A stretch of 64,000 bases of DNA, from assembly GCA_965242965.1 (NCBI GenBank), contig OZ251518.1, positions 2,169,838 through 2,233,837 on the forward strand, in the 5' to 3' direction. This DNA is from Candidatus Poribacteria bacterium. GTDB lineage: Bacteria > Poribacteria > WGA-4E > WGA-3G. The notes below the pieces were generated by a model that saw nothing but the letters and a program-made list of their open reading frames with translations, ran no database searches and was not told the DNA's origin. Shown here piece after piece: positions 3,812 through 60,790 of the stretch (position 1 is the first letter of the stretch; the number at the start of each line of letters is the position of its first letter). The position numbers and the translations under genes are program-made.

Positions 3812-4200
3812 ATGTGAGAGTGTTTCATAAATCGTCCAACGTCGCGGTGATAGGCCCCGCGATGCGGTGAAAAAAACGCCTCACCTTCACGTAGGGCGAG
3901 GGCCCTCGGATGCCACACGCGCATGCGAGAGGGTTCCCCTCGCCATCATCCGCGCAATCTAACGATCTCGGGGGACAGGCCCCCGCGCTACGGTGAAAAA
4001 ACGCCACCCCTTCACGTAGGGCGAGGGCCTGTCCCTCGCCATCGTTTTGGTGTCAGAACGCATCACCCCTGTAGTTCAGGATCGCCTGATCCTGACCCGT
4101 TCGGGAGCGGGCGCTCCCGAACTACAGAGGTGGGCCCGATGCCTGCCGGTATGCGCCTGCCCTCCAAGGCGGGATAAATACCGAAACGGATTTATGAAAC
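3812..4200. mobile_element. composite MITE-like element with ~19-bp terminal inverted repeats GAG(G/C)GTGTTTCATAAATC and nested palindromic modules
   Basis: Left end gagagtgtttcataaatcg (3814..3832); right end ggatttatgaaacacgctc (4182..4200). Inside are family-A hairpins (GGCGAGGGCCTGTCCCTCGCC, GGGGGACAGGCCCCC), the family-D dumbbell (CCTGTAGTTCAGGATCGCCTGATCCTGACCCGTTCGGGAGCGGGCGCTCCCGAACTACAGAGG) and a conserved GGTGGGCCCGATG...CCAAGGCGGGATAAATACCGAAACGGATTTATGAAACAC arm. Other copies lie at 20259..20690 and 26678..26945; single ends at 6783..6800, 28293..28312, 30856..30878 and 45775..45793. Confidence 0.7.
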
Positions 4201-4314
4201 ACGCTCACTAAATTTTAACGCATTCTGTTTTGGAAGTCAAGAAAAATTGTTTGAAATAATTTCGCGCTTGAGGTATAGTGCAACGATACGATTACATTCG
4301 CGGAGGAAAACCTT

Positions 4315-5354
4315 GTGAAAGCGGCACAATTCTATGGCGGAAAAGACATCAGGGTAGAAACCGTCCCAGACCCGAGTCCTCAAGAAGGAGAGGTGCTCGT
4401 GCAAGTGGAAGCGGCGGGTATCTGTGGCAGTGACCTGCACGGATATCACCATTCGCCGGAAAATCCCTTGGCCCCTCGCATCGGCGGGCACGAACTAATG
4501 GGCGAAATTCTCGATACCGGCAAAGGCACAAGCGACTCTCCCTCGCATATCAAACGAGGCAGTCGAGTTGCGATTGAACCGATTGTCCCGTGTAACTTCT
4601 GCCCGGAATGCCTCAACGGTTACTATAACATCTGCGCCAAACTGCGGCATGGCGGTGGCGGGTTTGCGGAATTCATGGTTGCCCCTGTCTCCAATGCGTA
4701 TGCGTTGCCGGCTAGCGTTTCAGTTGAGGGCGGTGCGCTGGCAGAGGTTTACGCCGTCGCCGTTCACGCTGTCAACCGCGCGATGGTTTCACCGGGGAAC
4801 GGGTTGCGATTATTGGCAGCGGTCCAGTCGGACTGACAATTGCGCAAGTGGCAGATGTTGCCGGTGCTACTTCTATCGCCATGTTAGGGAAGCCGGATGA
4901 GCCCCTCCAAATCGCCCACGAAGCGGTAGGTGCCGTGTCTATCAACGTCGATAAAACGGATGCCGTTGCGGCGATTCAGGAGTGGAGCGATGGCAGGGGT
5001 GCCGATGTCGTTTTTGAGGCAGTCGGCGGCACGGCAAATACGCTTGAACAGGCGACCGAGGTAGCCGCGAAACGGGGTAGAGTCTGTATGGTAGGAGGGC
5101 ATCGCACACCGCTTACGTTTTCGGAACGGTTCGCGCGGAGCAGAGAGCTTACTGTCATCTGGTCCTTCTGTTATGGCAGGCGCGGCGGGAAGACAGAGTT
5201 CCAAATCGCCATCGATTTACTCGCCGCTGGGAAACTCGATCCGAGTCCGTTGGTAACGCATCGGTTTGCTCTTGATGATATTAGTGAAGCGTTCGCTGTT
5301 GCTGCTGGCCGAGATGCGCACGGTTCTGTCAAAGTGCTTGTTTTTCCTAACTAG
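4315..5354 (+). pseudogene. zinc-dependent alcohol dehydrogenase (MDR family, sorbitol/threonine dehydrogenase-like) interrupted by a 1-nt frameshift
   Basis: Two adjacent ORFs (4315..4836 and 4848..5354) together cover an MDR dehydrogenase. The first carries GICGSDLHGYHH and CNFCPECLNGYYNIC (structural Zn site). Hand translation of the other frame at ~4805 gives VAIIGSGPVGLTIAQVADVAGA (GxGxxG NAD site), which continues into the second ORF. The frame switches near ccggggaacggg (4790..4805). A promoter (TTGAAA 4251..4256, 17-nt spacer, TATAGT 4274..4279) and GGAGG before the GTG start are present. Confidence 0.75.
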
Positions 5355-6284: not shown

Positions 6285-6810
6285 CAAGAGGGGAACAGGA
6301 TTTGCAGGATTAGCAGGATTAGCAAGAGAGGAGCAGGATTTGCAGGATTGACAAGATTAGCAAGAGGGGTCCGTAGCGCGGGGGCCTGTCCCCCGCGATC
6401 GCCCGCGTGCCCCCAGAGACTGTAGTTCGGGATCGCCTGATCCCGAACGGCGCATGGCGAGGAGAATCCTTTCCTGGCCCGTAGCGCGGGGGCCTGTCCC
6501 CCGCGATCGTTCGATCCGCGCGAAAAACGAACGCCGACAAAGGCCGTTTCCCTCCCGATCGAGGCACGGCGAGGGACAGGCCCTCGCCCTACGGTGAAAC
6601 GGAGACGGCCTTGCATACCGTAGCGCGGGGGCCTGTCCCCCGCGATCGTTCGATCCGCGCGAAAAACGCACGCCGACAAAATCCGTTTCCCTCCCGACCG
6701 AGGCATGGCGAGGGACAGGCCCTCGCCCTACGTGAAGAGAGGCGTTTTTTTAACCGTAGCGCGGGGGACAGGCCCCCGCGAACGATTTATGAAACCCCTT
6801 CATTTAAATG
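6285..6810. repeat. intergenic repeat block: family-F 9-bp tandem repeats, then two ~140-bp tandem composite family-A units
   Basis: 6290..6355 reads GCAGGATTAGCAGGATTAGCAAGAG.. GCAGGATTTGCAGGATTGACAAGATTAGCAAGAG. 6470..6610 and 6610..6750 are near-identical: ACCGTAGCGCGGGGGCCTGTCCCCCGCGATCGTTCGATCCGCGCGAAAAACG..GGCGAGGGACAGGCCCTCGCCCTACG. Confidence 0.8.
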
Positions 6811-8118: not shown

Positions 8119-8655
8119 GTTTTGCCTCCTTTGGTTTGTAGTGATAATTATGTTACCGTATTTAGGTGTTAAAATTCAAGAAAATTTTTGAATTGAGACC
8201 GCCTCTGTAGTTCGGGAGTGCCTGCTCCCGAACGGGTCAGGATCGGGCGATCCGATGAAGGGGACCGTTTTTCACCGTAGCGCAAGGGAGATAGCCGACC
8301 TGTCCCCCGCGATCGCAGGCATGGCGAGGGACAGGCCCACGCCCTACGGTAAACAGGAGCCGTTCCGGTTACCGTAGCGCGGGGGCCTGTCCCCCGCGAT
8401 TGTTGGGGTGTGCGAACGATGGCGAGGGACAGGCCCGCGCCCTACGGTAATACGGGGCGTTTTTTTACCGTCGACCCGTTCGGGATCAGGCGATCCCGAA
8501 CTACGGTCTTTTACAAGGTCCGGGCATGGCGAGGGACAGGCCCACGCCCTACGGGACGCGAGACGGTATGCATGACGTGCAATGGCGAGGGACAGGCCCA
8601 CGCCCTACGGGACGCGGGACGGTATGCATGACGTGCAAATGAAGAGGCGATGTCT

Positions 8656-10527
8656 TCATCGATGAAACCGCCGTTCCAATTCATCGCGGCCCATCTCAAT
8701 AATGATAGGACGGGAATGTGGACAATTGAAGGGCAACTTCGCCTCCGATAACTCGCGGACGAGATTCAGCATCTCTTTGGTATCTAAGGTATCACCGGCT
8801 TTTACCGCGGATTTGCAGGCGAGGGTTATCAGTGCCTTATCTAGTGCCTCCGGTAACTGCACCTCGCTGTGCGGTGCTTCGGGGAGCGCATCAAGCAAAT
8901 CGGTGACGGCTTGCGCGGCGGCCCGAGTCGGCAGCGGCGCGGGAATCGCGCGGATGAGAATCGTGTTCCCGCCGAATTCCTCCAGATCGAAGCCGAGTTT
9001 TTTGAAGATGTCGCTGTGCATTTTGAGGGTTGCAAGCTGCTGCGGTGTGCTTTCTAACGTCACCGGGAGCAATAAACCCTGCACGGGAATGCCATCTTTT
9101 TGCAGTTGATTAACGAACCGCTCATAAAGCACGCGCTCGGCGGCAACATGCTGGTCGATGAAGAAAACCTTATCTTTCGCCTCGGCGACAATATAGGTTT
9201 TAAAGAGGTTCGTTTTCAACTCAACCGCTTCAAAATCGAGCAGGGAAAGTAACTCTCCATCGGGAATCTCCTGTCGCGGCGGTTGCACGAAGGTTGGCGG
9301 TGCCTTGGGCGGCCGTTCAGGTTCCACGTCAGGTTCTACATCAGTGGGCGGCGCGGTTTCGCTCGTAGGCGGCGGTGCTTCGTTATCCGGCGTTTCGGTG
9401 CCGCTCGGTTTAGTAGGCGTAGGCGTAGGATGTTGGAGCGGCGGAATGCGTCTTCCGGGACGCGCGCCGGCGACACTACGGACACCGGTGCCTTCTGCAT
9501 CCTCTGTCTCAATAGGGGTTTCGATTTTTGGAATATACTTCGCTTTCTGGATAGCGTTGCGAATGATTCGGACAATGCCGCTGTAAACCATCCGTTCGTT
9601 CCGGAACCGCACCTCAATTTTAGCGGGGTGGACATTGACATCGACGGTGTTCGGTTCCATCGTCAGGAAGAGTAGCGCGACAGGTTGCCTATCTTTCGCC
9701 ACCATTGCGCCGAGTGCCTCGGTGATAGCGGCAGTGATAATGCGGCTGCGGATGGGCCGCTGATTCAGGAAGAAGAGTTGATAGTCCCGATTCGGCTTTG
9801 TAAAGTCTGGCTTTCCGAGGAGGCAATACATTTGCAAATCGGGCAGTTCCTCCTGAAATTCAGTGAGGTTCTCAGCGAATTCCTTGCCGTAGATGAGCCG
9901 CGTGCGTTCCAGATACGCATCGCAGGCGCGGACATCCAAGATGGTCCTGCCGTTATGTGTCAGCGAGAATTGGATATTCGGGTGGGCAAGCGCAGCCCAT
10001 GTCACCTGATTCGTGATATGGTTCATCTCTGTCGTGTCCGTTTTGAGGAACTTGAGGCGCGCGGGGACATTGTAAAAGAGATTGTTGATTGACATGTGCG
10101 TGCCGGGAGAGCAACCGCTCTCTTGGACAGAACGGAATACACCGCCATCAACGTTAACTTTTGTTCCCTCCATTGCATCCGCTGCACGGGTAAGCAACTC
10201 GAACTGCGAAACAGAAGCGATACTCGCTAATGCTTCGCCGCGGAAGCCGAAGGTGTTGATTTCCTCGAGGTCTTCGATGCGGTTCACTTTGCTGGTAGCG
10301 TGGCGTTCCAAGGCGAGGAGCGCGTCCTCACGTGCCATGCCGCTACCGTTATCGGAGACGCGGATGAGCCGTTTGCCACCGGCGCGAATTTCAACGCGGA
10401 CATTGGTGCTGCCAGCATCAATGGCATTTTCGATGAGTTCTTTGACTACTGATGCCGGGCGTTCCACTACCTCACCGGCAGCGATTTTATTTGCGACATC
10501 AGCAGAGAGTATTTTGATTTTTGGCAT
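8656..10527 (-). CDS. mutL: DNA mismatch repair protein MutL
   Basis: MPKIKILSADVANKIAAGEVVERPASVVKELIENAIDAGSTNVRVEI..GG...I.V.DNGSGM is a canonical GHKL ATPase N-terminus. The track ORF extends 84 codons upstream into repeat sequence; the start is set at the ATG at 10527. Confidence 0.9.
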   Translation of the reverse strand: MPKIKILSADVANKIAAGEVVERPASVVKELIENAIDAGSTNVRVEIRAGGKRLIRVSDNGSGMAREDALLALERHATSKVNRIEDLEEINTFGFRGEALASIASVSQFELLTRAADAMEGTKVNVDGGVFRSVQESGCSPGTHMSINNLFYNVPARLKFLKTDTTEMNHITNQVTWAALAHPNIQFSLTHNGRTILDVRACDAYLERTRLIYGKEFAENLTEFQEELPDLQMYCLLGKPDFTKPNRDYQLFFLNQRPIRSRIITAAITEALGAMVAKDRQPVALLFLTMEPNTVDVNVHPAKIEVRFRNERMVYSGIVRIIRNAIQKAKYIPKIETPIETEDAEGTGVRSVAGARPGRRIPPLQHPTPTPTKPSGTETPDNEAPPPTSETAPPTDVEPDVEPERPPKAPPTFVQPPRQEIPDGELLSLLDFEAVELKTNLFKTYIVAEAKDKVFFIDQHVAAERVLYERFVNQLQKDGIPVQGLLLPVTLESTPQQLATLKMHSDIFKKLGFDLEEFGGNTILIRAIPAPLPTRAAAQAVTDLLDALPEAPHSEVQLPEALDKALITLACKSAVKAGDTLDTKEMLNLVRELSEAKLPFNCPHSRPIIIEMGRDELERRFHR

Positions 10528-10534
10528 TTTTTGT

Positions 10535-10748
10535 TGTTTCCTAATTGTTTGTATCGGGCCCTGTAGGCGGGACATCCCTGTCCCGATACGGTATTGCATC
10601 GAGACCGGGAGGTCTCTCCTACTGTAGGCGGGACATCCCTGTCCCGACACTCGCCGGTAGGCGGGACATCCCTGTCCCGAAATTCGCCTACCGTAGGCGG
10701 GACATCCCTGTCCCGATACGGTATTGCATCGAGACCAGGAGGACTCGC
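10535..10748. repeat. cluster of family-C (GTAGGCGGGACATCCCTGTCCCGA) and family-B (GCATCGAGACC[N]GGAGGTCTCTCCTAC) palindromic units
   Basis: Four copies of the 24-bp family-C unit with irregular 10-38 bp spacing, plus two family-B copies. It lies between mutL and the ABC ATPase gene. Confidence 0.8.
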
Positions 10749-12791
10749 CTACTGGGATTCTAACAGATAGCAATGACACGAATGCGTCTGTGTGAGATGC
10801 GTGACCCCCGGATATTTATCCTTGCAATGCGGCATCACCTCTGGACATCGTGGATGGAAATGACATCCTGCCGGCCGGTTAATCGGCGATGGGACATCAC
10901 CTTCCAGCCGAATCTTTTCCACACTGCTCGCGGTATCCATTTTTGGGACAGCAGAGAGGAGAGCACGCGTATAGGGATGCTTCGGCGAATCAAAAATCTC
11001 CTCGGTTGTCCCGCGCTCTACGATGCGCCCCAGATACATCACGGCTACTTCATCGGCGAGGTATTCCACAACGGCAAGGTTGTGCGTGATGAACAAGTAG
11101 GTGAGTCCTAGTTCATTTTGCAAGTCTTTGAGCAGATTCAAGATTTGCGCTTGCACCGATACGTCCAACGCACTCGTCGCCTCGTCGCAAACGATGAATT
11201 CCGGATGGACGGCGAGGCATCGCGCGATGCAAATGCGCTGTCGTTGTCCGCCAGAGAATTCGTGCGGATAGCGCGTTACCATGTCCGGCGATAGCCCTAC
11301 CCGTTGCATCAGAGTGGCGACGCGCTGGCGGCGTTCTGTCGCCGATGCACCGATGTTGTGCGTCCGCATCCCTTCCTGAATAATATCTCCGACGGTTAGC
11401 CTCGGATTGAGCGAAGAGTAAGGATCTTGGAAAATAATCTGCATCCGCTGCCGATAGGGATGCAGTTGCCCGCGCGTCGCCGTCGTGATGTCAACGCCAT
11501 CGTAACGGATGTCGCCGGTGACAGGCACTCCCAGCCGCAAAATCGCCTTGCCGAGGGAGGTTTTGCCGGAGCCGGACTCCCCAACGAGTGCCAGCGTTTT
11601 GCCGCGCGGCATCGCGAGCTCAACGTTATCTACGGCGTAAACATAACCGGCGGCGCGCTTGAAAATCCCTTTCAAAATCGGATAGTGGACGCAGATGTTC
11701 TTTAATTCCAGCGCAAACTCCTGCGTCTCATCCGCGCGCTCCAAAATAACCTTCGTCTTCTCGGCAGCACTCGCAAGTGTGTCCGTTTCCAACGGAGCAT
11801 CAAACGGCGGCGCGGGGTTATAGAGGTGACAAGCGACGTTGTGCTGTGTTTCGTCTGTGGACAGCACGGGCGCGATGCTCGCGCACCCCTCCATGACTTT
11901 CGGACATCTATCGGCGAACCGGCAACCATCTCCATCGTCACCGTATTCTGTCGCTTTTGGGACGCGCCCGGTAATCGTCTGCAATTCGGCACCCCGTTTA
12001 TGCCGCGCCGGTGTAGACTCTAGCAACTTGACGGTATAGGGATGCTTCGGTGTGTTATAGAGCTGCGTCCATGTGCCCATTTCAACGATTTTTCCGGCAT
12101 ACATTACTGCAACCCGGTCCGCCATATTCGCCACGACTGCCAAGTCGTGCGTAATCAACAGCACTGCCATCTGGAATTCCTGTTGAAGGCGTTGGATGAG
12201 CTCCAGAATCTGTGCTTGGATAGTCACATCGAGTGCGGTAGTCGGTTCATCGGCGATGAGCAGGCTCGGCTGACAAGAGAGTGCCATCGCAATCATGACG
12301 CGCTGTTTCATGCCGCCGGACATCTGGTGAGGATACTCATTGTAACGCGCCGCTGGTTCCGGAATCCCCACTCGTTCTAACATCTCAATCGCTGCGTTTC
12401 GGGCGGCAGTGCCGCGGAGGTTCTGATGCAGGCGGATGGCTTCCGAGATCTGGTTCCCGATTGTGAAAACGGGATTGAGACTCGTCATTGGTTCTTGAAA
12501 GATCATTGCGATGTCGTTGCCCTGAACCTTTCGCTTTTCGATGGCGGGGAGGCGCGTGATGTCTTGGCCTTTGTAATAAATCGCGCCACCGGCGATAAAC
12601 CCTGTCGGCTGCGGCACGAGTTGGATAAGCGAGAGCGCGGTGACGCTCTTCCCGCAGCCGGACTCACCGACAAGCGCGAAGATTTCGTTCTGCCGGAGCT
12701 CAAAGGAAACACCGTCTACTGCACGTGCCACTCCTTCCGGCGTGCGAAAATAGGTTCTGAGGTTTTGGACGCTGAGCAATGTTTCGTTCAT
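10749..12791 (-). CDS. ABC transporter ATP-binding protein with duplicated ATPase domains (peptide/opine importer GsiA/YejF-like)
   Basis: Two Walker A sites (GESGCGKS, GESGSGKT) and two ABC signature/Walker B regions. Cys-rich oligopeptide-ATPase C-terminal segments are present after both domains (DGDGCRFADRCPKVMEGC..., CHFHPRCPEVMPHC). Confidence 0.85.
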   Translation of the reverse strand: MNETLLSVQNLRTYFRTPEGVARAVDGVSFELRQNEIFALVGESGCGKSVTALSLIQLVPQPTGFIAGGAIYYKGQDITRLPAIEKRKVQGNDIAMIFQEPMTSLNPVFTIGNQISEAIRLHQNLRGTAARNAAIEMLERVGIPEPAARYNEYPHQMSGGMKQRVMIAMALSCQPSLLIADEPTTALDVTIQAQILELIQRLQQEFQMAVLLITHDLAVVANMADRVAVMYAGKIVEMGTWTQLYNTPKHPYTVKLLESTPARHKRGAELQTITGRVPKATEYGDDGDGCRFADRCPKVMEGCASIAPVLSTDETQHNVACHLYNPAPPFDAPLETDTLASAAEKTKVILERADETQEFALELKNICVHYPILKGIFKRAAGYVYAVDNVELAMPRGKTLALVGESGSGKTSLGKAILRLGVPVTGDIRYDGVDITTATRGQLHPYRQRMQIIFQDPYSSLNPRLTVGDIIQEGMRTHNIGASATERRQRVATLMQRVGLSPDMVTRYPHEFSGGQRQRICIARCLAVHPEFIVCDEATSALDVSVQAQILNLLKDLQNELGLTYLFITHNLAVVEYLADEVAVMYLGRIVERGTTEEIFDSPKHPYTRALLSAVPKMDTASSVEKIRLEGDVPSPINRPAGCHFHPRCPEVMPHCKDKYPGVTHLTQTHSCHCYLLESQ

Positions 12792-12844: not shown

Positions 12845-13440
12845 TTTGGAATTGCGAGGCAAGTTGACACCGCGCGATCGCGGGGCCCGTCCCTCGCCGC
12901 GCCCAGAGACCGTAGTTCGGGAGCGCCTGATCCCGAACGGGTCGACGGTAAAAAAACGCCCCGGATTACCGTAGGGCGAGGGCCTGTCCCTCGCCGTGCC
13001 CAGATCTTGGAAAAGACCGTAGTTCGGGAGCACCTGCTCCCGAACGGGTCGACAGTAAAAAAACGCCCCTCGTTCTCTTCAGGTCCTTTAGGTCCTGAAT
13101 GTCTATAGCAGCCGCAACGCAAAGAGCCCTAAGGTCCTTTAGGTCCTTAATAGACTTTGAGATGCCGCGTGTTTTTTATTAAGGACCTAAAGGACCTTGC
13201 CGGGGGTTGCCTATTTTTCTATAGACATTAAGGACCTAAAGGACCTAAGAGGCCCTCTTGACGACAGGCATCGCGGGGGACAGGCCCCCGCGATACGGTA
13301 AAAAAAACGCCCCGGGTTACCGTAGGGCGAGGGCCTGTCCCTCGCCATGCAACGATCGCGAGGGACAGGCCCCCGCGCTACGGTAACCATTCCCTACTCG
13401 CGCTGAAAAAATAACAATTGACAAAAACACGTTTTTCTGC
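12845..13440. repeat. intergenic repeat block (families A, D, E), including terminator-like modules
   Basis: Contains two copies of GTCGACGGTAAAAAAACGCCCC.. adjacent to family-A hairpins; on the opposite strand these read as a GC stem followed by T7. Confidence 0.75.
13078..13249. mobile_element. ~175-bp palindromic element (family E) built on AGGTCCTTTAGGTCCT / CTATAGACAT motifs
   Basis: ttcAGGTCCTTTAGGTCCTgaatgtCTATAG...TTATTAAGGACCTAAAGGACC...CTATAGACATTAAGGACCTAAAGGACCTAAG. A near-identical copy lies in inverted orientation at 30511..30687; a fragment is at 5557..5580. Confidence 0.7.
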
Positions 13441-14526: not shown

Positions 14527-14594
14527 TCCCACTCTCCCTTGCAGCAAACGGGATTATGAGCGCGTGCCTATTTACGAAAGAGGAGAACATTTTC

Positions 14595-15639: not shown

Positions 15640-16130
15640 GCCTTTTATTTTTAAGTGAAAGGGAGGCGTTTTTTACCGTAGCGCAAGGGAGAGAGCAGAC
15701 CTGTCCCACGCGAGTGTCCGGGGCCGCGGACGATGGCGAGGGACAGGCCCTCGCCCTACGGTGAGACGGCCCCCTCTGTAGGTCAAGATCGCCAGATCTT
15801 GACCCGTTCGGGATCGGGCGATCCCGAACTACGGTCTACGTTGAAGGGGTGGCGTTTTTAACCGTAGCGCGGGGGCCTGTCCCCCGCGATCGCTGCATGG
15901 CGAGGGACAGGCCCTCGCCCTACGGTGAAGGGGGGAGTTCTTTTCGCGTGCTAGATGGCGAGGGACAGACCCTCGCCCTACGGTGAAGGGGGACCTTCTG
16001 CCGCCGCTGCCCCGGGAGGCGCGCCGCCCTATTGCATCGAGACCAGGAGGTCTCTCCTACCGGGAAAACGGCATCGTTCGGAATCTCACGAAACCATTTT
16101 GACAACAACGAGTTAAGAAACACCCTCATT
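15640..16130. repeat. intergenic repeat block (families A, B, D)
   Basis: Three GGCGAGGGACAG(G/A)CCCTCGCCCTACGGTGA units, one family-D dumbbell (15775..15835) and one family-B unit (16030..16060). Confidence 0.75.
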
Positions 16131-17414: not shown

Positions 17415-17700
17415 GTTCTCCTTCTTTTTGTTTCGATCGGGCGATCAAAACCTATTTTGAGATTTTGTTTCGATCAGGCGATCGAAACCTATTTTGAGAT
17501 AAAGATATAATAGCGTATTCCGTGAATTTTGTCAAGACTTGAGCAGGATTTACAAGATTAGGCAAGATTTTCAAGAGGACATTTCACACCGCACCCAACC
17601 TATCAGAACTGCCACAAGCAGCGGGGGCAGGGGATGCCCCCCTCATCCTGCAAAATCTTGTAAATCTTGTAAATCTTGCAAATCCTGCTCCGATTTCATT
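17415..17700. repeat. tandem 39-bp hairpin repeats, then a family-F inverted pair
   Basis: 17431..17509 is TTTGTTTCGATC(G/A)GGCGATC(A/G)AAACCTATTTTGAGAT x2. 17545..17580 and 17650..17695 are inverted 9-bp-repeat arms (CAGGATTTACAAGATTAGGCAAGATT / AATCTTGTAAATCTTGTAAATCTTGCAAATCCTG) flanking a GGGGGCAGGGGATGCCCCC hairpin. Confidence 0.75.
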
Positions 17701-20245: not shown

Positions 20246-20746
20246 TTAATTGAGGGTGTTTCATATTTCGATGCGTTCGGTAGGAGAGACCTCCTGGTCT
20301 CGATGCAATAGGCGGCGCGCCTACCGGAGCCGCGGCGGCAGAAGGTCCCCCTTCATCGTAGGGCGAGGGCCCGCGCAGGTTTCCACACGCGCAGGCGAGC
20401 CGGTTTCCCTCGCCAACGTTCGCTCGCCATGCCCTATAGGTCAGGCTCGCCTGATCCTGACCCGTTTGTGATCAGGCGAGCACAAACTACAGAGAGGGAA
20501 ACACACATCGGGACGATGGACAACGCGGGGGACAGGCCCACGCGCTACGGGAAAATCGAGACCGGGAGGTCTCTCCTACGGGAGCATCGCTTCGGGTAGG
20601 AGGGACATCCTTGTCCCGATACGCACAGTATAAAACGCATCGAGACCAGGAGGTCTCTCCTACGGGTGTGCATCGATTTATGAAACACCGTCAGTTAATG
20701 ACAACCTCACTGACGGATTACGTAAAGATACACACTTGCAACAACC

Positions 20747-26661: not shown

Positions 26662-26965
26662 TAGCAACAAGTTATAGGAGGGTGTTTCATAAATCGCTCA
26701 ACGTCGCGGTGCCAGACCCCGCGCTACGGTGAAAAAACGCCTCCCTTTCACGTAGGGCGAGGGCCTGTCCCTCGCCACGCGTTTGGCTGGTAGACCGCCT
26801 CACCCCTGTAGATCAGGATCGCCTGATCCTGATCCGTTCGGGATCGGGCGATCCCGAACTACAAAGGTGGGCCCGATGTCTTCTGGTATTCGCCCTCCCT
26901 CCAAGGCGGGATAAATGCCGAAACGGAGTTATGAAACTCCCTCAAATAAATAGGAGAAAATCGAA

Positions 26966-27967: not shown

Positions 27968-28494
27968 TCTCGAATTTTCCGGTGTAACGCATATTCCAAC
28001 GTAGGGCGAGGACCACGGGGACACATCGAGACCGGGAGGTCTCTCCTACATAACGCATATTCCAACGTAGGGCGAGGGCCCTCGGATGCCACACGCGCAT
28101 CCGAGCGGGTTTCCCTCGCCATGCGTTTGGTTGGCAGACCTCATCACCCTTGTAGTTCAGGATTGTCTGAAGCTCTGGCACATTTGCCAAGCGATCCTGA
28201 CCCGTTCGGGAGCGGGCGCTCCCGAACTACAGAGGTGGGCCCGATACGCGCCCCCTCGCTTTTCTATCGGTATTCGTCCTTCCCCTAAGGGGCGTAAATT
28301 TATGATACACCCTCATCTAATTTTGACCCGGGCGGGCTCAATACCCAGTAGGAGAGACCTCCCGGTCTCGATGCAATATCCCGGTAGGAGAGACCTCCCG
28401 GTCTCGATGAATCACACCCCATCGGGACAAGGATGTCCCTCCTACCCAAATAACACCAGAAGTAGGCGCGCCCTCCCAGTCTCGATGCCCACTC

Positions 28495-30316: not shown

Positions 30317-30510
30317 TAGCATTTTCCTTCGGCAGGCGCGGTTCGTCCTGCGTAAGTCCTCTATGAACGGGCATTAGAAATTCCGCAACGTTCTTCCCCG
30401 TAGGAGAGACCTTCCGGGCTCGATGCATTCCGGTAGGAGAGACATCCTGGTCTCGATGTTCCCGCAGCGCGGGGGACAGGCCCCCGAGATCTCTGTCGTC
30501 TCAATGCGTT

Positions 30511-30687
30511 CTTAGGTCCTTTAGGACCTACATGTCTATAGAAAAACGTGTCGTCCCATTTTCAAGGACTTTTAGGTCCTTAATAAAAAACACGCGAGGC
30601 ATGTCAAAATCTATTAAGGACCTAAAGGACCTTAGAGCCTTTTGCGTTTCGGTTGCTATAGACATTAAGGTCCTACGGACCTGAAGA
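30511..30687. mobile_element. second copy of the family-E element, inverted relative to 13078..13249
   Basis: The reverse complement of this segment aligns base-for-base with 13078..13249 except for a few substitutions. Confidence 0.7.
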
Positions 30688-30880
30688 GAAGAAGAGACGT
30701 TTTTCCGTAGCACCGACGATGGCGAGGGACAGGCCCTCGCCCTACGATGAAGGGGGATTTCTGCCGCCGAGCCCCGGGAGGCGTGCCGCCCTATCGCATC
30801 GAGACCAGGTAGTCTCTCCTACCGGCAATAGCGCGGGGGCTGTCACCGCGACATTGAGCGATTTATGAAACACCCTCATA

Positions 30881-31395: not shown

Positions 31396-31475
31396 TTCTG
31401 TGCCTCCTTAATGCCTCTTTCAACTAACTTTTCTTGGAAAGGTTTGGCATCTTTTTCAAGGCATAAAAATCCTAT

Positions 31476-37992: not shown

Positions 37993-38035
37993 GATGCCGG
38001 GTATCCTTTGCAAAAGCGTGATGAGAAAAACGCTG

Positions 38036-38734
38036 CTATTCGGCTAAACGTTTTATCACCTTTTGGATATCCTCCCACACTTCGCGCTTCGCGCTTGGAT
38101 TGCGGAGGAGATATGCGGGGTGATACGTCGGCATTATCACCGGCGCGTTGTCCCGTTGTCCCGCGACACCGTAGGGCTGAAACTCCCCCCGAAGTGCCGT
38201 GATACCCATCTTGGTATCCAGCAACAACTGCGCGGCGAAGCTGCCGAGGGCAACAATCACTTTCGGCTGAATGAGCTCAATTTGGCGTTCCAAATAGGGG
38301 CGACACATATCCACTTCATCGGAGGCTGGATTTCTGTTACCCGGCGGCCTGCACTTCAGCACGTTCGCGATATAGACATCGTCGCGCGTCTTCCCCATCC
38401 CTTTCACGATGATGTCTGTCAGCAATTTGCCGGCTCTGCCGACAAAAGGTTCTCCCTGCCTGTCTTCATCAGCACCGGGTGCCTCGCCGATAAACATCAG
38501 ATCAGCGTTCGGGTTCCCCACGCCGAAAACGACGGTATTTCGAGTTGCGTGAAGTCCACATCGGGTGCAGCCTTGGGCATCGGCATCTAACTGCCCCAAG
38601 TCTAACGTAGCGTAAGGAGATGCCTGCTGCGGTTCTTGTAGTTCGGTGATACCGAGTTCAAGTTGTTCTTGCACGTATTCCCTCACAGTGGCGACAAGTT
38701 GTAGGTATTCTTCTTTGAGGTTGTCTCTGTTCAT
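38036..38734 (-). CDS. uracil-DNA glycosylase, family 4
   Basis: [33 protein letters not shown] and HPAYLLRNP are family-4 UDG motifs. The start is set at the ATG at 38734 (MNRDNL). Confidence 0.85.
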
Positions 38735-38739
38735 GGCGG

Positions 38740-39159
38740 CATGGCGAGGGACAGGCCCCCGCCCTACGATGAAAACGGACATGATGGCATGGCGAGGGAC
38801 AGGCCCACGCCCTACGATGAAAACGGACGTAGGAGAGACCTCCCGGTCTCGATGCATGGCGAGGGACAGGCCCTCACCCTACGATAAAAATGGACGCTGC
38901 AGCCCCACTCTGTAGAGCAAGAGCGCCTGCTCTTGACCCCGCGCCCTACGATAAAAACGGAAAAATACGTTCATGGCGGCATGGCGAGGGACAGGCCCGC
39001 GCCCTACGGTAACCAAACCGCCCCACTCTGTAGGGCAAGAGCGCCTGCTCTTGACCCCGCGCCCTACGATAAAAACGGACATGGCGGCATGGCGAGGGAC
39101 AGGCCCTCGCCCTACGATAGTGATGCGTTTCGTAGTGATGCGTTTCGTCTCTGAACGCA
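38740..39159. repeat. intergenic repeat block (family A units with CATGGCGGCATGGCGAGGGACAGGCCC heads, family D)
   Basis: Five GGCATGGCGAGGGACAGGCCC(N)CGCCCTACGATGAAAACGGAC-type units, including a near-tandem pair at 38744..38830. Confidence 0.75.
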
Positions 39160-45360: not shown

Positions 45361-45914
45361 AGTAACCTCCTCATAGCGCGCAATCGCGGCACGCCTATGG
45401 GGTTTGCAGGCATTGTCTTAAGCAACACCTGCTGGGTTTTCACATCCACCTCTTTCATATTTGCAACAGACTCTCAAGGATACGAGAGAACCCGCTGTGC
45501 AAATCGGGAGGTGTGTCGTTTGAATAATGCGTTGCGCCAAATTGCAACACTTTGGACGCTTTTATTCGCGCCATTAATATTTTACCACAAAAATGTTGCA
45601 ATTGCAAGTAAACTTTTCATGATGGACGCAAATGCAAATTCTCCGCCGATAGACAGCGTTTCAACTTGTTCAGCATCCATTCTATTTTTATATCATAAAT
45701 TTCATTGCATTGTCAAGAAAAATCTTAAAAAATATGGTTATCAACCTCAAGGTTGGATTTCACGTCTAATTATTAAGAGTGTTTCATAAGTCCATTTCGG
45801 CATTTATCCCGCCTTGGAGAGCAGGCGAATATCAGAAGGCATCGGGCCCACCTCTGTAGTTCGGGAACGCCCGCTCCCGAACGGGTCAGGATCTGGCGAT
45901 CCTCACCTACAGGG

Positions 45915-47021
45915 GTGATGCAGTCTGCTATTAAGGCTTTAGGGAGGAAAAAACGCAAATTGCAAGAATTTATTCAACGGGAGAGATGGCAGCGGCTGCT
46001 CAACCCCATCGCGGCGCACTTCCAGACATCCCCAAACGCGATTCAGATTGAGGCAATCCAGCACGGGACTCGGCTGAGAGAGAACGTCTGCCGCCTCATC
46101 ATCGGCAAGGAAAGTTACTTGCTAAAACAGCATGACGTGACCGCACCGGCTGTTGAAGCGGGACATACGCCTATCCAGATTGAGGCTACCGTGTTATCCA
46201 CGTTGCACCGAAGTGGCTGCCGCGTTCCCAAGGTGATTTGGAAATCCGAACCCTTGCATGCGTTGCTATTGGCATGGTGCGGCGAGAACACGTTGGATTC
46301 CATTGCGCAACGTCATCGGGATGCGCATGCCCCAGCGGTTGTCTGGCGTGTGCTAAAAGAATTGTGTCAGATGGAGACACGTTTTGTGGAAAACGCCGAA
46401 TTTCTCAAACCTTACGTATTCGGTTTTGATAGCCGTGCGACTTTGGAACGCTTGTTGGAACAAGGGAAAAGGACGCTCGGTTATCTGCTAACTTCCGCTG
46501 ACCACAATGTCCAAAACGCGTGGCACGCGCTTTCTGTCCGCTTATTGGATGCCCCAACGACCTTAGGCACGCTGGACTACAATGCCCGTAACGTTGTCCT
46601 CGCCGGCGCGGAACCGACGTTTATTGATTTCGGGAGCATCGGTTGGGATTGGCAGGAGAGGCGGCTCGTGCAACTCTTCAATAGTATCGGTGCCTTCACA
46701 GAAGGCGCGAATTTTGTCTCACTGCTAGACAAAGAGCTGGTTCACCATTACGCGACGTGGGTTGCGACGCACCGAGAAACCTGTTCGCCTTCGGACATCG
46801 CGGCGCGGGTAGATGCACATCATCTGTTGCTTTACTTGTCGGTGGTGCATCGGCTTTTGCGAGTGGTAGTGCGTCCTGAAACGGTGGACAGTCAGATGCT
46901 TCTGCATGCTTGGGGAGATGCGCGTGCCAGATTTCAACGCGCACTCACGTTGATTGCCACCGCCGATTTAAGCGATGATGGTGACATCGGCCGAATTCGG
47001 GACATGATTCGCCAGAGATGA
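45915..47021 (+). CDS. phosphotransferase-family protein (APH/choline-kinase-like protein kinase fold)
   Basis: LGTLDYNARNVVLAGAEPTFIDFGSIGWDWQERRL resembles the APH catalytic-loop/DFG-like region (D.N..N...FID). Confidence 0.55.
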   Translation: MMQSAIKALGRKKRKLQEFIQRERWQRLLNPIAAHFQTSPNAIQIEAIQHGTRLRENVCRLIIGKESYLLKQHDVTAPAVEAGHTPIQIEATVLSTLHRSGCRVPKVIWKSEPLHALLLAWCGENTLDSIAQRHRDAHAPAVVWRVLKELCQMETRFVENAEFLKPYVFGFDSRATLERLLEQGKRTLGYLLTSADHNVQNAWHALSVRLLDAPTTLGTLDYNARNVVLAGAEPTFIDFGSIGWDWQERRLVQLFNSIGAFTEGANFVSLLDKELVHHYATWVATHRETCSPSDIAARVDAHHLLLYLSVVHRLLRVVVRPETVDSQMLLHAWGDARARFQRALTLIATADLSDDGDIGRIRDMIRQR

Positions 47022-52774: not shown

Positions 52775-52849
52775 ATTTTTTTGTAAAAAAAGTGATATTT
52801 TTTGGATATTCGCGAAAAAATCCTATAAATCCTATAATTTTGTCTATGG

Positions 52850-53760
52850 CGTATCGGGACAAGGATGTCCCTCCTACCCAAACGCATATCGGGACAAGGA
52901 TGTCCCTCCTACCCAAACCCGTAGGAGAGACCTCCCGGTCTCGATGCAACTTTCGGTAGGAGACCGTAGTTCGGGAGCGCCTGATCCCGAACGGCGCATG
53001 GCGAGGAGAACCCCTTCCGGGCCCGTAGCGCGGGGGTCTGTCCCCCGCGATCGCCCGCGTGCCCCAGAGACTGTAGTTCGGGAGCACCTGCTCCCGAACG
53101 GGTCAAGAGCAGGCACTCTTGACCTACAGAGGTGATGCGCGCACGCGTGCCCGAGGGCACGGCGAGGGACAGGCCCTCGCCCTACGGTAAACGGCACGTT
53201 TTTTCACCGTAGCGCGGGGGCCTGTCCCCCGCGATCGCTCGATCTGCGCGAAAAACGCACGCAGACTAAGGGCGTTTTCCCGACCGAGGCATGGCGAGGG
53301 ACAGGCCCTCGCCCTACGGTATGCGTGGCGTTTTTTTCACCGTAGGGCGGGGGCCTGTCCCCCGCGATCGTTCGCGTGCCCCAGAGACCGTAGTTCGGGA
53401 GCACCTGCTCCCGAACGGGTCAAGAGCAGGCGCTCTTGCCCTACAGAGGGGATGCGCGCACGCGGGCCCGACGGCACGGCGAGGGACAGGCCCTCGCCCT
53501 ACGGTGAAAGGAGACGGCCTTGCATACCGTAGCGCGGGGGCCCTCGCCTGCCACACGCGCAGGCGAGCGGGTTTCCCCCGCGATTGCCAGACCCGCGCGA
53601 AAAACGCACGCCAGCCAAAGCCGTTTTCCCGACCGTTGCATGGCGAGGGACAGGCCCTCGCCCTACGGTAAGCGGCACGTTTTTTCACCGTAGCGCGGGG
53701 GCCTGCCCCCCCGCGGTGGATACCGCATCCTCAGATGCTATAATCTTGTAAATCCTATAA
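52850..53760. repeat. ~0.9-kb intergenic block of family A, B, C and D repeat units
   Basis: Multiple ACCGTAGCGCGGGGGCCTGTCCCCCGCGATCG and GGCGAGGGACAGGCCCTCGCCCTACGGT units, two family-D dumbbells (53060..53140, 53385..53450), family C at 52855..52915 and family F at 53735..53790. Confidence 0.8.
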
Positions 53761-54762: not shown

Positions 54763-55247
54763 CTCCCGCCTCGCGAGGGCCTGTCCCTCGCGAACGTGAC
54801 ATGCTCAATACCGTAGCGCGAGGGCCTGTCCCTCGCGATCGCTAGTTTTTTGTAGTTCGGGAGCGCCTGCTCCCGAACGGGTCAGGATCAGGCGATCCTG
54901 ACCTACAGAGGTGAGGAGGTCTGACGGCCAAACGCATGGCGAGGGACAGGTTTTCCCACCGCCCTACGTGAAGGGATGGCGTTTTTTTCACCGTAGCGCG
55001 AGGGCCTGTCCCTCGCGATCGTTAGTTCTTTGTAGTTCGGGAGCGCCTGCTCCCGAACGGGTCAGGATCGTTTGGCAAATATGCCAGAACTTCAGACGAT
55101 CCTGCCCTACAGGGGTGAGGCGGTCTGCCAGCAAAACGCATGGCGAGGGACAGGCCCCCGCCCTACGTGAAGGGGTGACGTTTTTTACCGTAGCGCGAGG
55201 GCCTGTCCCTCGCGATCGTGAACTGATAAACAATAAGGAGAAATCCA

Positions 55248-56795: not shown

Positions 56796-57974
56796 ATGAC
56801 AATATGCCACGGACTCCCGCGCGCCATTCCCGAAGAAGTAGGAATGTCAGCAGCGCGGTTAAAACGCATCGCCCCGGTGATGCAACGCCACATCGACGAA
56901 GGAACCATCTCCGGCGCGTTAACCATGATAGCGCGCGAAGGAAAACTCGTCCATTTTGAGAAACTCGGCATGCGCGACATCGCCGCAGCGAAACCGATGG
57001 AATTTGATACCATCTTCCGCATCTATTCCATGACGAAGCCGATTACCAGCGTCGCCGTGATGATGCTTTACGAAGAAGGGCATTTCCAACTGAACGCGCC
57101 GATATCCGAATTCATTCCCGCCTTCAAAGACATGAAGGTTTACAGCGAAGATCAGACGGAAATTGTCGATGCTGAGCCCGAGATGACGATAAAGCATCTG
57201 CTCACGCATACCGCCGGGCTCATCTACGGCGGTGATAGTGGTAGCCCGATTGATCTGGCGTATCAAGACGCGAATTTCTTCGATGCAACGCTTGAATCAA
57301 TGGCGCAGAGACTGGGAGCCATTCCGCTGCTGCACCACCCCGGTGCGGCATGGACTTACGGCATGTCCACCGATGTGCTAGGATACCTTGTGGAAGTCGT
57401 GTCCGGGATGCCGTTTGAAACCTTCTTGCAGACGCGCATTTTCGAGCCGATGGGAATGGTAGACACCGGCTTCTCTGTGCCAGAAGAAAACGCAGACCGG
57501 TATGCCACACTCTATGAACAAACTGAAAACGGCGGCATTCAGGTGGTAGAGCAAGCACCGGTTTCAACGGGTCCGCTGAGTTTCCCGCCATCAGGTGGTG
57601 GAGGACTTCAGTCAACCGCCGCCGATTACCTGCGCTTCTGCCAGATGTTGCTCAACAACGGCGAACTTGACGGCGAACGCCTCCTCGGTTCAAAGACGGT
57701 GGAGCTCATGCGGATAAATCATGTTGACGATGCTTGGCAGCCGTTGGAGAGAGAGGGGTGCGGTTTCGGGCTTGGGTTCGCGGTCGTCACAGACCTGGCG
57801 GAGACACATGCCCTCGGTTCGGAAGGCACTTTTAGTTGGGGCGGTTTGGCACGGACAACGTTTTGGATCGATCCGGTGGAAGAGCTCATCGCCGTATTCA
57901 TGACGCAGCTCCTCGGCGATGCGCAGTTCCACGCGCAGTTCCGGGTGCTGACGTATCAGGCGATTATTGATTAA
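56796..57974 (+). CDS. serine hydrolase, beta-lactamase-like, paralog (~60% identity) of 55248..56462
   Basis: FRIYSMTKPITSVAVMMLYEEG (SxxK) and HLLTHTAGL. Confidence 0.8.
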   Translation: MTICHGLPRAIPEEVGMSAARLKRIAPVMQRHIDEGTISGALTMIAREGKLVHFEKLGMRDIAAAKPMEFDTIFRIYSMTKPITSVAVMMLYEEGHFQLNAPISEFIPAFKDMKVYSEDQTEIVDAEPEMTIKHLLTHTAGLIYGGDSGSPIDLAYQDANFFDATLESMAQRLGAIPLLHHPGAAWTYGMSTDVLGYLVEVVSGMPFETFLQTRIFEPMGMVDTGFSVPEENADRYATLYEQTENGGIQVVEQAPVSTGPLSFPPSGGGGLQSTAADYLRFCQMLLNNGELDGERLLGSKTVELMRINHVDDAWQPLEREGCGFGLGFAVVTDLAETHALGSEGTFSWGGLARTTFWIDPVEELIAVFMTQLLGDAQFHAQFRVLTYQAIID

Positions 57975-58477
57975 TTGAAAGATCGCGGGGGACAGGCCCC
58001 CGCGCTACGGTGAAGGGGGGTATCCCGCGCGACGTAGGGCGAGGGCCTGTCCCTCGCCATGCCAAGAAGAGAGGGCGATTTTGATTCATTAAACGATCGC
58101 GGGGGACAGGCCCCCGCGCTACGCGGAAGGGATAATGCCTCTTCAATCCGTAGGGCGAGGGCCTGTCCCTCGCCATGCCAAACGGAAAAAAATTGATTCA
58201 TTAAACGATCGCGGGGGACAGGCCCCCGCGCTACGGTAGAAGAACGGTCTCCGCGCATCGTAGGGCGAGGGCCTGTCCCTCGCCATGCCAAACGGAAAGA
58301 GAAATTGATTAATGGAACGATCGCGGGGGACAGGCCCCCGCGCTACGCGGAAGGGATAATGCCTCTTCAATCCGTAGGGCGAGGGCCTGTCCCTCGCCAT
58401 GCCAAACGTACCCCGCGTTACGTAGGGCGAGGGCCTGTCCCTCGCCATGCACAGCATAAGAAAAAAGGAAACTCATC
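57975..58477. repeat. tandem array of four ~115-bp MITE-like hairpin units with variable cores
   Basis: Each unit is GATCGCGGGGGACAGGCCCCCGCGCTACG, then a 22-25 bp core, then CGTAGGGCGAGGGCCTGTCCCTCGCCATGCCAA(ACGGAAA..ATTGATTCATTAAAC). The cores of units 2 and 4 are identical (CGGAAGGGATAATGCCTCTTCAATC); the cores of units 1 and 3 differ. Confidence 0.8.
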
Positions 58478-59095: not shown

Positions 59096-60162
59096 AGCCA
59101 ATGAAGCATCTGTTAGGTTTACGCCTCCTCTTCGCAACGCTTATTGCACTCGCCCCGGTAGGCGGGATTTGTAACCCCGCGCCTGTCGCCAATACAGAGG
59201 AAACTATGGAGCACACAATGTATTCAGTCAGCGACAAAATCGTCGATGGGTTTCACGTTTACGCCTTACAGCAGGACGAAACCACCGTCGCCGAAATCGT
59301 CCCCGCGCTCGGAAATAACTGCTACGCCTTCCGAGTTGCCGGGCGCGTCTTAATAGATGAACCGCCCGATCTGGCGACGTTGCAAGAACGTCCCACCGCC
59401 TACGGAAACCCTATATTGTTTCCGTTTCCAAACCGCATCCGCGATGGCAGCTGGACGTTTGAAGGCGAAACCTATCAGTTTGACAAACCGCCCGATGCAC
59501 CGACGACTATCCACGGGTTGTTGCTCAACCGTCCCTATCATGTCCAACGTCACGCAGCAGACGAAAACGGCGCGACGCTTGTCTGCACGCTCAATTCGCA
59601 CGATGTGCCAGATATTGGCAGACAGTATCCGTTTCCGTTTCACATTGAGATAACGTATACCCTCAAAGATTCCGTGTTGACGATGGGCGTTTCTATCAAA
59701 AACACCGGCAAAGGGAACATGCCGATGGGGTTCGGCATCCACCCCTATTTTCGCGTCGCGAATCCATCGCAAGCGAAAATCACCGTGCCCGCCGCGAAAT
59801 ACTGGGAACTTGACGATGTGCTAGTCCCCACAGGAAAACAACTTCCTGTCGCCGGAGCCTTGGATTTGCGGGATGGAAAGCCGTTCGTCGGATTAAAGTT
59901 GGACCACGTTTTCACAGACGTGCAATTGACAGACGGTGTAAGCCGATGCATCATCGGGAATGAATTGGTGATGGAATCGGATGCCATCTTCAGAGAACTC
60001 GTCGTCTATACACCACCGGGAAGGGATGCCATCTGTTTTGAACCGTATACCTGCCCGACAGACGCGATTAATTTGGAGGCGAAAGGCATTCCTGCTGGTA
60101 TCATTGTGCTGTCACCGGAAGAAACTTTCGCCGCTACCGTTCGGATTCTGCGCGTTCGGTAG
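59092..60162 (+). CDS. aldose 1-epimerase family protein (galactose mutarotase-like), secreted
   Basis: Signal peptide. YGNPILFPFPNRI and GFGIHPYF are conserved in the aldose epimerase superfamily. Confidence 0.75.
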   Translation: MKPMKHLLGLRLLFATLIALAPVGGICNPAPVANTEETMEHTMYSVSDKIVDGFHVYALQQDETTVAEIVPALGNNCYAFRVAGRVLIDEPPDLATLQERPTAYGNPILFPFPNRIRDGSWTFEGETYQFDKPPDAPTTIHGLLLNRPYHVQRHAADENGATLVCTLNSHDVPDIGRQYPFPFHIEITYTLKDSVLTMGVSIKNTGKGNMPMGFGIHPYFRVANPSQAKITVPAAKYWELDDVLVPTGKQLPVAGALDLRDGKPFVGLKLDHVFTDVQLTDGVSRCIIGNELVMESDAIFRELVVYTPPGRDAICFEPYTCPTDAINLEAKGIPAGIIVLSPEETFAATVRILRVR

Positions 60163-60790
60163 GAGAGCCCTCCTGGTTTTGATTTTTCAACATATCGGGA
60201 CAAGGATGTCCCTCCTACCCAAAACGATGTTCCCCGTAGGAGAGACCTCCTGGTCTCGATGCATTCCCGTAGGAGAGACCTCCCGGTCTCGATGTTCCCG
60301 TAGCGCGGGGGCCTGTCCCCCGCGCGCGTTGGGATACGCGAGCAATGGCGAGGGACAGGCCCTCGCCCTACGGTGAGGGGTGGTGTGTTTATCGTAGCGC
60401 GGGGGCCCTCGGATGCCAGACGCGCATCCGAGAGGGTTTCCCCCGCGATCTCATCGTCACGATGTGTGTTTCCGCCTCTGTAGTTTGTGATCGCCTGATC
60501 ACAAACAGGTCAGGATCTGGCGATCCTGACCTACAGAGCCTGGCGCACGCACGCTGGCGAGGGACAGGCCCTCGTCCTACGGTGAAGGGGTGGTGTTTTT
60601 ATCGTAGTAGGAGGGACATCCTTGTCCCGATACGCACAGCAACAAAACGCATCGAGACCCGGAGGTCTCGCCTACTGGGGGCATCGAGACCCGGAGGTCT
60701 CGCCTACTGGGGGCATCGAGACCCGGAGGTCTCGCCTACCGAACGCTGGGTTGACATCCATCGCGGATTTGTGGTATCCTATAAACTATA
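60163..60790. repeat. intergenic repeat block including a 32-bp x3 tandem of family B
   Basis: 60667..60740 is GGGGGCATCGAGACCCGGAGGTCTCGCCTACT x3. Family C (60195..60225), B (60235..60295), A (60300..60420, 60550..60600) and D (60475..60540) are also present. Confidence 0.8.

Follow-up and report, generated by a model that had tools for sequence, protein, structure and literature searches.

A 64-kb stretch of contig OZ251518.1 from a Candidatus Poribacteria genome (hereafter the window) carries ordinary chromosomal genes, including those for sulfatases, Gfo/Idh/MocA oxidoreductases, DUF1501, ThuA, MutL, PriA, Dxr, CdsA, Frr, Tsf, RpsB, tryptophanyl-tRNA synthetase (TrpRS), RseP, uracil-DNA glycosylase (UDG), and several DNA methylases. 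The GC content is 52–57%, and close homologs of the TrpRS and MobA proteins are labeled Candidatus Poribacteria in their source records, many of them on contigs of 5–6 Mb; two other window proteins looked up for exact matches gave no record. The host is a sponge-associated member of this phylum, and its intergenic spacers are packed with two kinds of repeat: repetitive extragenic palindromes (REPs), organized as bacterial interspersed mosaic elements (BIMEs); and a small family of elements bounded by terminal inverted repeats (TIRs). Both vary among close strains. [quoted passage not shown]

Self-comparison of the window, with a multi-copy block defined by at least three copies, assigns 8.0–8.1 kb (12.5%) to 28 blocks, all of them intergenic. 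This is about one-eighth of the window, not the one-sixth first estimated; the share rises to 21% only if sequences matched just twice, duplicated genes among them, are included. REPs lie in 22 of the 46 spacers, including nearly every spacer longer than 230 nt, and they occupy 60–95% of most REP-bearing spacers above that length. To call the intergenic DNA saturated, as the earlier note did, is thus fair.

Families A to D, all present as first described, share a common plan: a GTAG tetranucleotide, 0–3 nt, a stem of 6–9 bp, and a loop of 4–5 nt. The window contains 138 such GTAG-plus-hairpin units, compared with 1–9 (about three) in Markov shuffles and a background of about seven per 64 kb in 0.84 Mb of unrelated loci. 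All but two are extragenic, and those two are unrelated chance hairpins, which leaves 136 family units at a density of ~2 per kb; contigs from close strains have a similar density. The small palindromes are REPs of at least six classes rather than sub-modules of a MITE. Each class carries a 5' GTAG tag, and they differ in stem and loop: A1, CGCGGGGG-CCTGT; A2, GGCGAGGG-CCTGT; B, GAGACC-TCCN; C, GGGACA-TCCN; D1, TTCGGGAGC-GCCT; and D2, GTCAGGATC-GCCT. No Rfam family matched at its gathering score.

Because the unit scan required GTAG, the position of the tag was tested again from the hairpin cores alone. Of 70 A cores, 65 have GTAG on one given side and only two on the mirror side; each of the 18 B cores and each of the 10 C cores has it on exactly one side. 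The D units were chosen by the presence of GTAG, and so its occurrence in 37 of 37 aligned units carries that selection with it. The D stems provide evidence of another sort. Across the 37 units, seven of nine pairs show changes on both sides of the stem, 96.6% of cells remain paired, and covariation is 0.48, compared with 0.17 in shuffles and at most 0.17 in slid registers. G-U intermediates are nearly absent. Likewise, A1 and A2 differ by two compensated pair changes, C-G to G-C and G-C to A-T. Covarying stems that almost never pass through G-U indicate that the hairpin is maintained, and suggest that selection on the stem acts more probably on DNA than on RNA.

Neighboring units associate in all three relative orientations (31 tail-to-tail, 34 head-to-head, and 41 head-to-tail), with spacing peaks at 22–27 nt and 3–4 nt. 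In tail-to-tail pairs the GTAG tags face inward, ~22–27 nt apart, and every clear case joins one A1 with one A2 unit. In head-to-head pairs of D1 and D2 the tags lie outside and the units are 3–4 nt apart; these are the "dumbbells" already noted as family D. The dumbbell tags pair with one another to close a predicted three-way fold (−24 kcal/mol, z = −7.8), and the dimers have predicted single-stranded DNA folds of z = −5 to −8. Alternating orientation, regular spacing, and tandem modules are all present, as in BIMEs and in REP doublets forming hairpins (REPINs).

These dimers are assembled into larger arrays. In the cluster at 57966..58452, tail-to-tail dimers of A1(−) and A2(+) with their linkers repeat as a BIME-like array (57966–58408) of 114 bp in 3.9 copies. 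The largest cluster (52849..53718), in a spacer of 1.9 kb between divergent genes, combines all six classes (A1, A2, B, C, D1, and D2) in 17 units. Others contain a 139-bp tandem duplication (6371..6793); A1, A2, and D1 units (8202..8621); head-to-head D1/D2 dumbbells with A-type tail-to-tail dimers (54772..55220); and 12 units, among them three tandem B variants with CGAGACC-TCCG (60157..60741). A further cluster of nine units (38732..39123) gives the UDG open reading frame (ORF) a spurious N-terminal extension.

REP arrays generate such artifacts repeatedly. Spurious ORFs or false N-terminal extensions, examples of which affect MutL, UDG, and a methylase, lie at 10528–10779, 36610–36756, and 38738–38857, among other sites, and the repeated "SGQGCPAY" peptides ahead of MutL are a translated REP array. 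Many ORFs of 70–148 residues lie within REP clusters, and 18 ORFs of at least 70 residues are mostly REP sequence, a hazard for gene callers.

Do the REPs serve the host? They could be intrinsic or Rho-dependent terminators, messenger RNA stabilizers, or binding sites for gyrase or integration host factor, retained by selection and no longer mobile. They are intergenic, and many lie downstream of genes; 12 of the 31 tail-to-tail linkers have, beside GC stems, a run of T or A that is 5 nt or longer; and roles of this kind have been published for Escherichia coli REPs and BIMEs (PMC2817692). The T7 run cited in the earlier note (~8446–8478, within the 8202..8621 cluster) does exist. However, terminator-like sites are not enriched (23 versus 23.1 expected, and 33 versus 22.9 ± 4.8), and linkers with T runs occur in either orientation with respect to genes: about five of the 12 point the wrong way or lie between divergent genes. 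Moreover, REP content changes between genomes that are 96% identical, relatives have few REPs or none, and the stems avoid G-U pairs. Some linkers may conceivably act as terminators or at the RNA level, but the data lend this no support, and we regard host function as an improbable explanation for the system as a whole.

The second kind of repeat is defined by its ends. The TIR motif GAGSGTGTTTCATAAATC, allowing up to three mismatches, occurs 11 times in the window where 0.16 would be expected. Six of these occurrences form three inverted pairs (3816–3833/4189–4206, 20252–20269/20675–20692, and 26678–26695/26926–26943), and five are solo ends (6784, 16110, 28297, 30860, and 45775). The TIR first proposed is thus real, with boundaries 2–7 nt from those originally given. 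The window holds three complete copies of 266–441 bp, without any ORF, and five truncated ones. Inverted ends that enclose a short, non-coding, multi-copy element are the hallmark of a MITE, and these elements form a MITE-like family of their own, distinct from the REPs.

The canonical type-1 element (26678..26943, + strand, 266 bp, with 0 and 2 mismatches in its TIRs) comprises, in order: the left TIR; a degenerate A1 REP; a linker; an A2 REP; a D2/D1 dumbbell; a unique right arm of 60 nt; and the right TIR. It is 98.9% identical to its ortholog in a closely related genome (L141; related loci and matching contigs are cited by such numbers). The second type-1 element (3816..4206, +), between divergent genes, has an extra internal segment of ~125 bp that includes a REP pair; the two copies are collinear over their shared parts with 86–87% identity. 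The type-2 element (20252..20692, +) has arms of ~60 nt, each consisting of the TIR, CGATGC, and a B REP, around an interior of D, A, B, and C REPs.

The truncated copies are of several kinds. One (15655..16127, −) retains its right TIR (16110–16127) and has lost the left TIR along with ~160 nt, relative to the complete copy at L141:4613–5310. A truncated type-1 element (28066..28314, −) keeps the TIR at 28297–28314; its left part is deleted, with end points in two A2 REPs (GGGCGAGGGCC). Solo left-type ends are found at 6703..6801 (−), a partial copy with an adjoining REP pair, and at 30716..30877 (−), an end that is orthologous to L141:19894 and whose partial-copy match spans 30829–30881. Finally, a type-1 right half (45775..45927, +) contains the TIR, the unique arm, and a D1/D2 dumbbell, and matches the corresponding halves of the complete copies at 88–89% identity.

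These elements are the basis for the proposed hierarchy, in which the palindromes would be sub-units of 19-bp-TIR composites moved by one transposase. Three TIR pairs do enclose REP modules, and the two type-1 copies share a module order. Yet the complete elements contain only 13 of the 136 REP units, about 26 if truncated copies are added, so that more than 80% lie outside any TIR-bounded element; most of the 22 REP-filled spacers have no TIR; the modules bear their own conserved GTAG tag; and orthologous TIR elements in L141 hold different modules. We accordingly consider a single hierarchical MITE system very unlikely. REPs and TIR-bounded MITEs are different element classes, presumably moved by different enzymes.

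Bases beyond the TIR core are conserved as well. Among 15 independent ends, T stands at −6 in 13, at −5 in 14, and at −1 in 13, and A stands at −4 in 12. TA occupies −5/−4 in 11 of the 15, compared with a background of 4%. The outer TTAW could be part of a 24-nt TIR, or could reflect a target preference. Comparison with L118 favors the flank, whereas the left junction of the empty-site comparison described below favors the element.

Comparisons with related genomes reveal how both kinds of repeat change. L141, a circular contig of 5.74 Mb, is ~96% identical to the window and syntenic with its 11.2–31.6-kb segment. L141 shares the window's TIR insertions at orthologous sites, and nevertheless REP composition differs in five of the seven REP-bearing orthologous spacers. 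For example, the L141 ortholog of the 20252 element has an extra B REP and, where the window has a D dumbbell, both an A1 REP and a family E unit. Orthologous TIR elements with different REP content indicate that REPs turn over independently of TIRs. In the spacer between Gfo2 and M55, L141 has a complete TIR pair (4613/5293) where the window lost the left TIR and ~160 nt, and the 28066–28080 junction likewise is a deletion in the window with end points within two A2 REPs. Internal deletions thus gave rise to the solo TIRs, and one of these deletions ran between two REPs.

At greater distance, L142 and L143 (~90% nucleotide identity) have an empty site for the 20252–20692 element: the M28-peptidase stop codon and the mobA start codon are 31 nt apart, compared with 501 nt in the window. 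L142 has two REPs in 8.6 kb. L116, a 5.0-Mb contig whose TrpRS protein is 87% identical, is syntenic with the window from 22 to 43 kb; its spacer upstream of trpS is 99 nt rather than 304 nt, and it has no TIR. L116 does carry a different GTAG REP, GCGCGGTT-TYC-AACCGCGC, with eight units in 21 kb. Other poribacterial loci have few GTAG REPs or none. These comparisons indicate that the REPs expanded recently, and did so specifically in this lineage.

L117 and L118, from two co-occurring strains ~97% identical over trpS, lose homology to the window at TIR outer ends (26943/26944 and 28314/28315), where they have other REP arrays; L118 homology resumes at 28315. L117 has a type-2 TIR at another position. 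The same repeat families are found on other contigs of the close strains L117, L118, and L141. The repeats are thus neither confined to this locus nor fixed among strains, two outcomes that the earlier note had named as counting against mobility.

Could the repeats have spread without any transposition, by local slippage, unequal crossing-over, and gene conversion between clusters? Tandem arrays, module replacements between strains, and deletions between REPs all bear the marks of such processes. They do not account for the recurrence of the same 25–30-nt units across 64 kb, in 22 different spacers, and on unlinked contigs, nor for relatives of 87–90% identity whose orthologous spacers are empty or nearly so; initial dispersal requires a mobilizing activity. 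Spread by these processes alone is scarcely credible. They are, however, probable contributors: arrays, replacements, and deletions suggest that slippage, recombination, and gene conversion amplify and reshuffle REPs once present.

Families E and F are also confirmed. Family E is a nested palindrome of ~170 bp with AGGTCC/GGACCT motifs, present twice in the window (13077–13250 and 30510–30680). Its 28-nt arms are 96% complementary, and its inner 22-nt arms are 100% complementary. Other copies are found at L117:1545–1745 and at L141:4789–5019 and 9629–9860. The family is polymorphic, in that the two L141 copies occupy positions orthologous to D dumbbells in the window. A related sequence, TAGTCCTGTAGGGACGATATGTTTATAGAAAAGCG, occurs in the more distant poribacterial loci L132 and L138. 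Family F consists of tandem 9-bp WRCARGATT units (17542–17689; also 6294–6349, 47032–47200, and 53742–53767), with 20 matches versus 3.2 expected. At 17542–17689 and 47032–47200 the units form inverted arms around a spacer of ~70–100 nt, and they have no GTAG tag. The family F arrays look like iterons or multiple protein-binding sites.

Which enzymes might move these repeats? Pfam and NCBIfam searches of the window ORFs identified no transposase, REP-associated tyrosine transposase (RAYT), or other Y1/HUH gene, in agreement with the earlier note. The exact TIR 19-mer has nine matches in Joint Genome Institute (JGI) metagenomes, on contigs of very different GC content. In L121 (35% GC) it forms a 91-bp inverted pair flanked by TA (L121:3868–3962). 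In L124 (60% GC) there is a 131-bp inverted pair (563–693) together with a third copy (2263–2280). In L122 and L123 (43% GC) the TIR lies at two contig ends with an identical continuation (L122:6029–6122 and L123:8474–8571). That small inverted-repeat elements or multi-copy repeats end in this TIR core (GAGGGTGTTTCATAAATCG, 18 nt or longer) on contigs of 35%, 60%, and 43% GC suggests a widespread element family. The L121 end, ACAGGTTGTTTCATAAATC, resembles the inverted repeat of the mariner element Himar1, a lead only.

Other matches are less informative. Four (L119, L125, L126, and L127) are apparent chance: L125 and L126 lie inside genes, and L119 and L127 share the L125 flanks. Both matches in viral contigs also look like chance. 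A DDE_5 transposase near the 19-mer in L120 has its own 22-nt inverted repeats, with the 19-mer outside them. L117, considered as an autonomous element, has a single TIR, and no Pfam family is recorded for either of its two ORFs. A scan of reference genomes with the 14-mer GTGTTTCATAAATC returned 115 chance loci, none with REPs; the pattern is too unspecific.

The IS630-family insertion sequence (IS) beside the L122 copy, together with TA nearby, raised the possibility that the TIR has an IS630 origin. That IS ends in AGTGGTTCACTCGCTAAG flanked by TA. A MITE derived from IS630/Tc1-mariner was rejected on these grounds: TA lies 3 nt outside the conserved TIR core rather than abutting it, and poribacterial IS630 elements have the AGTGGTTCACTCGCTAAG ends. 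The IS itself comprises two ORFs (HTH_32 and DDE_3) and was seen in L130–L138, L140, and L122:4712–5948. It occupies at least 10 contexts, in samples with other poribacterial genomes (41–49% GC), and is not in the window.

Together, these results make it probable that the spacers contain two distinct kinds of non-autonomous repeat, GTAG REPs spread by RAYTs and a separate, older TIR-bounded MITE-like family, and that the apparent hierarchy is secondary. By analogy with known REP and REPIN systems, the REPs would spread as single-stranded hairpins through the action of RAYTs (HUH/Y1 enzymes) encoded elsewhere in the genome; the earlier note had rightly judged the repeats non-autonomous and listed RAYTs as candidates. 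The TIR family (~18–24 bp, TTAWnT-GAGGGTGTTTCATAAATC) would have been inserted earlier by a presumed DDE-type transposase. Its copies look old, in that they occupy orthologous sites in the 96%-identical genome and some ends are decaying. Once in place, the TIR elements may simply be further intergenic DNA into which REPs insert or recombine.

Several observations weigh against this interpretation. No autonomous IS with matching TIR ends was found in the JGI metagenomes, viral contigs, or plasmids (the plasmid BLAST search returned nothing useful), and the IS630-family transposase beside the L122 TIR copy has different ends. No RAYT or Y1/HUH gene was found in the window or in 1.06 Mb of loci, the latter a weak search by tblastn with RAYT and IS200 queries. 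Direct repeats at the TIR boundaries are ambiguous: the 7-bp AGTTAAT lies on both sides of 20252–20692, as expected of a target-site duplication, but the other two complete elements have no direct repeat. The conserved TTAW 3–6 nt outside the TIR core reads either as target preference or as part of the TIR. The empty-site comparison with L142 and L143 leaves 19–25 nt to the right of the right TIR unaccounted for; their resemblance to a degenerate TIR hints at nesting. Finally, some module differences between strains are replacements, which suggest that recombination or gene conversion, and not transposition, produced them.

A bolder proposal goes further: that this lineage has the densest and most diverse REP system yet (~10^4 units per genome, six or more classes, recently expanded); and that the TIR marks an undescribed, widespread transposon or MITE family, possibly a landing pad or carrier for REPs that couples cut-and-paste with HUH-type transposition. 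We think this unlikely, though less so than the rival accounts weighed above.

The window has other features of interest. Two Gfo/Idh/MocA-type oxidoreductase genes lie in tandem (13489–14526 and 14556–15632), with 94% identity over their first 300 nt; the pair is also present in L141, and each window copy is ~87% identical to the other paralog of L141. A zinc-type alcohol dehydrogenase gene (4315–5354) is broken into two frames (4315–4836 and 4848–5354), with ADH_N and ADH_zinc_N on separate ORFs; either the gene is a pseudogene with a frameshift or the sequence contains an error. A REP cluster separates two paralogous N6/N4 DNA methylase genes (35080–36609 and 37003–38013), and L116 has a single methylase here; the first has a restriction-endonuclease-like carboxyl-terminal domain. 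The ~3.5-kb segment from trpS to a gene for a 317-residue protein (27968–31475) is missing from syntenic L116, where the spacer is 103 nt. This segment contains a gene for a 561-residue N6/N4 DNA methylase (28495–30180, also in the close strains L118 and L141), a HicB-like antitoxin gene (30881–31150), REPs, and two TIR ends. The window and L141 share an ORF for 241 residues (21437–22162) that matches nothing in Pfam or NCBIfam and is missing at the syntenic position of L116 and L142. In the divergent promoter region between glyoxalase and sulfatase genes, a 37-bp tandem duplication (17426–17500) has the palindrome GTTTCGATCRGGCGATCRAAAC in each unit; a good σ70-like promoter match, TTGACA-17-TATTAT, adjoins it.

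REP/RAYT systems have, to our knowledge, been studied almost only in Proteobacteria, and the literature searched yielded no report of this TIR sequence or of REPs or MITEs in Poribacteria. An uncultured, sponge-associated phylum with ~2 units per kb, drawn from six co-resident REP classes, would extend these systems to a new setting, and near-identical genomes that differ in REPs provide a natural system for measuring rates of REP gain, loss, and recombination. There are practical consequences as well. REPs break short-read assemblies of Poribacteria, and contigs from the close strains end in REPs; annotation pipelines should mask REPs, since they generate spurious ORFs and false N-terminal extensions.

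How do these repeats compare with known systems? Modular intergenic repeats are familiar from the BOX elements of Streptococcus pneumoniae, which have the fixed order boxA-boxB(n)-boxC, no GTAG tag, and no link to RAYTs. The poribacterial repeats also are modular, with a small vocabulary of sub-units in variable numbers, but their order varies. Bacterial MITEs with TIRs include the Correia elements of Neisseria, RUP, Nezha, and ERIC. The TIR family resembles these in its length (266–441 bp), lack of an ORF, TIRs of ~18–24 bp, multiple copies, AT-rich sites beside genes, and an empty site in a relative. It differs in that interiors consist largely of REPs, which belong to another element class and differ between orthologs; no parent IS with matching ends was found; and direct repeats accompany only one of the three complete copies.

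Another parallel lies in Pseudomonas. In Di Nocera 2013 (PMC3733652), the TIRs of P. putida and P. fluorescens are formed by degenerate GTAG-1 REPs joined to unrelated stem-loops; TIRtrons/TIRYT are described there as well. Here too, an inverted-repeat end abuts a degenerate REP (the type-1 left TIR is followed by GTCGCGGTGCCAGACCCCGCGCTAC), and families mix REP with non-REP palindromes. However, the published TIRs lie on either side of a tyrosine-transposase gene and have a GGGGWSAS motif in common, and neither is present here.

Known REP systems have hundreds to roughly 1,600 units per genome; if the window is typical, this genome would have thousands. The resemblance to REPs, BIMEs, and REPINs (E. 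coli PU-BIMEs, Pseudomonas REPINs, Stenotrophomonas SMAGs) is otherwise detailed. They share the terminal GTAG, a GC-rich stem of 6–9 bp, and a loop of few nucleotides; a place outside genes, many copies, more than one class in the same genome, species specificity, and compensatory stem changes; and head-to-head and tail-to-tail dimers 1–5 or 20–100 bp apart in tandem mosaic clusters (PMC3733652). The heterotypic dimers are like the Y and Z units of E. coli. REPs of the same form have been tabulated, including GGTAGCGCCGGGCCATGCCCGGCG of S. maltophilia and GTGGCGAGGGAGCTTGCTCCCGCT (Nunvar 2010, PMC2817692). GTAG-tagged REPs with 6–13-bp stems, arranged in head-to-head, tail-to-tail, or head-to-tail dimers and with several families per genome, are described by Di Nocera 2013, which also places such REPs in Planctomycetes and other deep-branching phyla (PMC3733652). 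The poribacterial REPs differ in their density of ~2 units per kb with six co-resident classes, in stems almost devoid of G-U pairs, in that no cognate RAYT was seen in the sequence searched, and in a host phylum absent from the REP literature found. For an element of a known kind, what is new is its host phylum, its density, and how many of its classes reside together.

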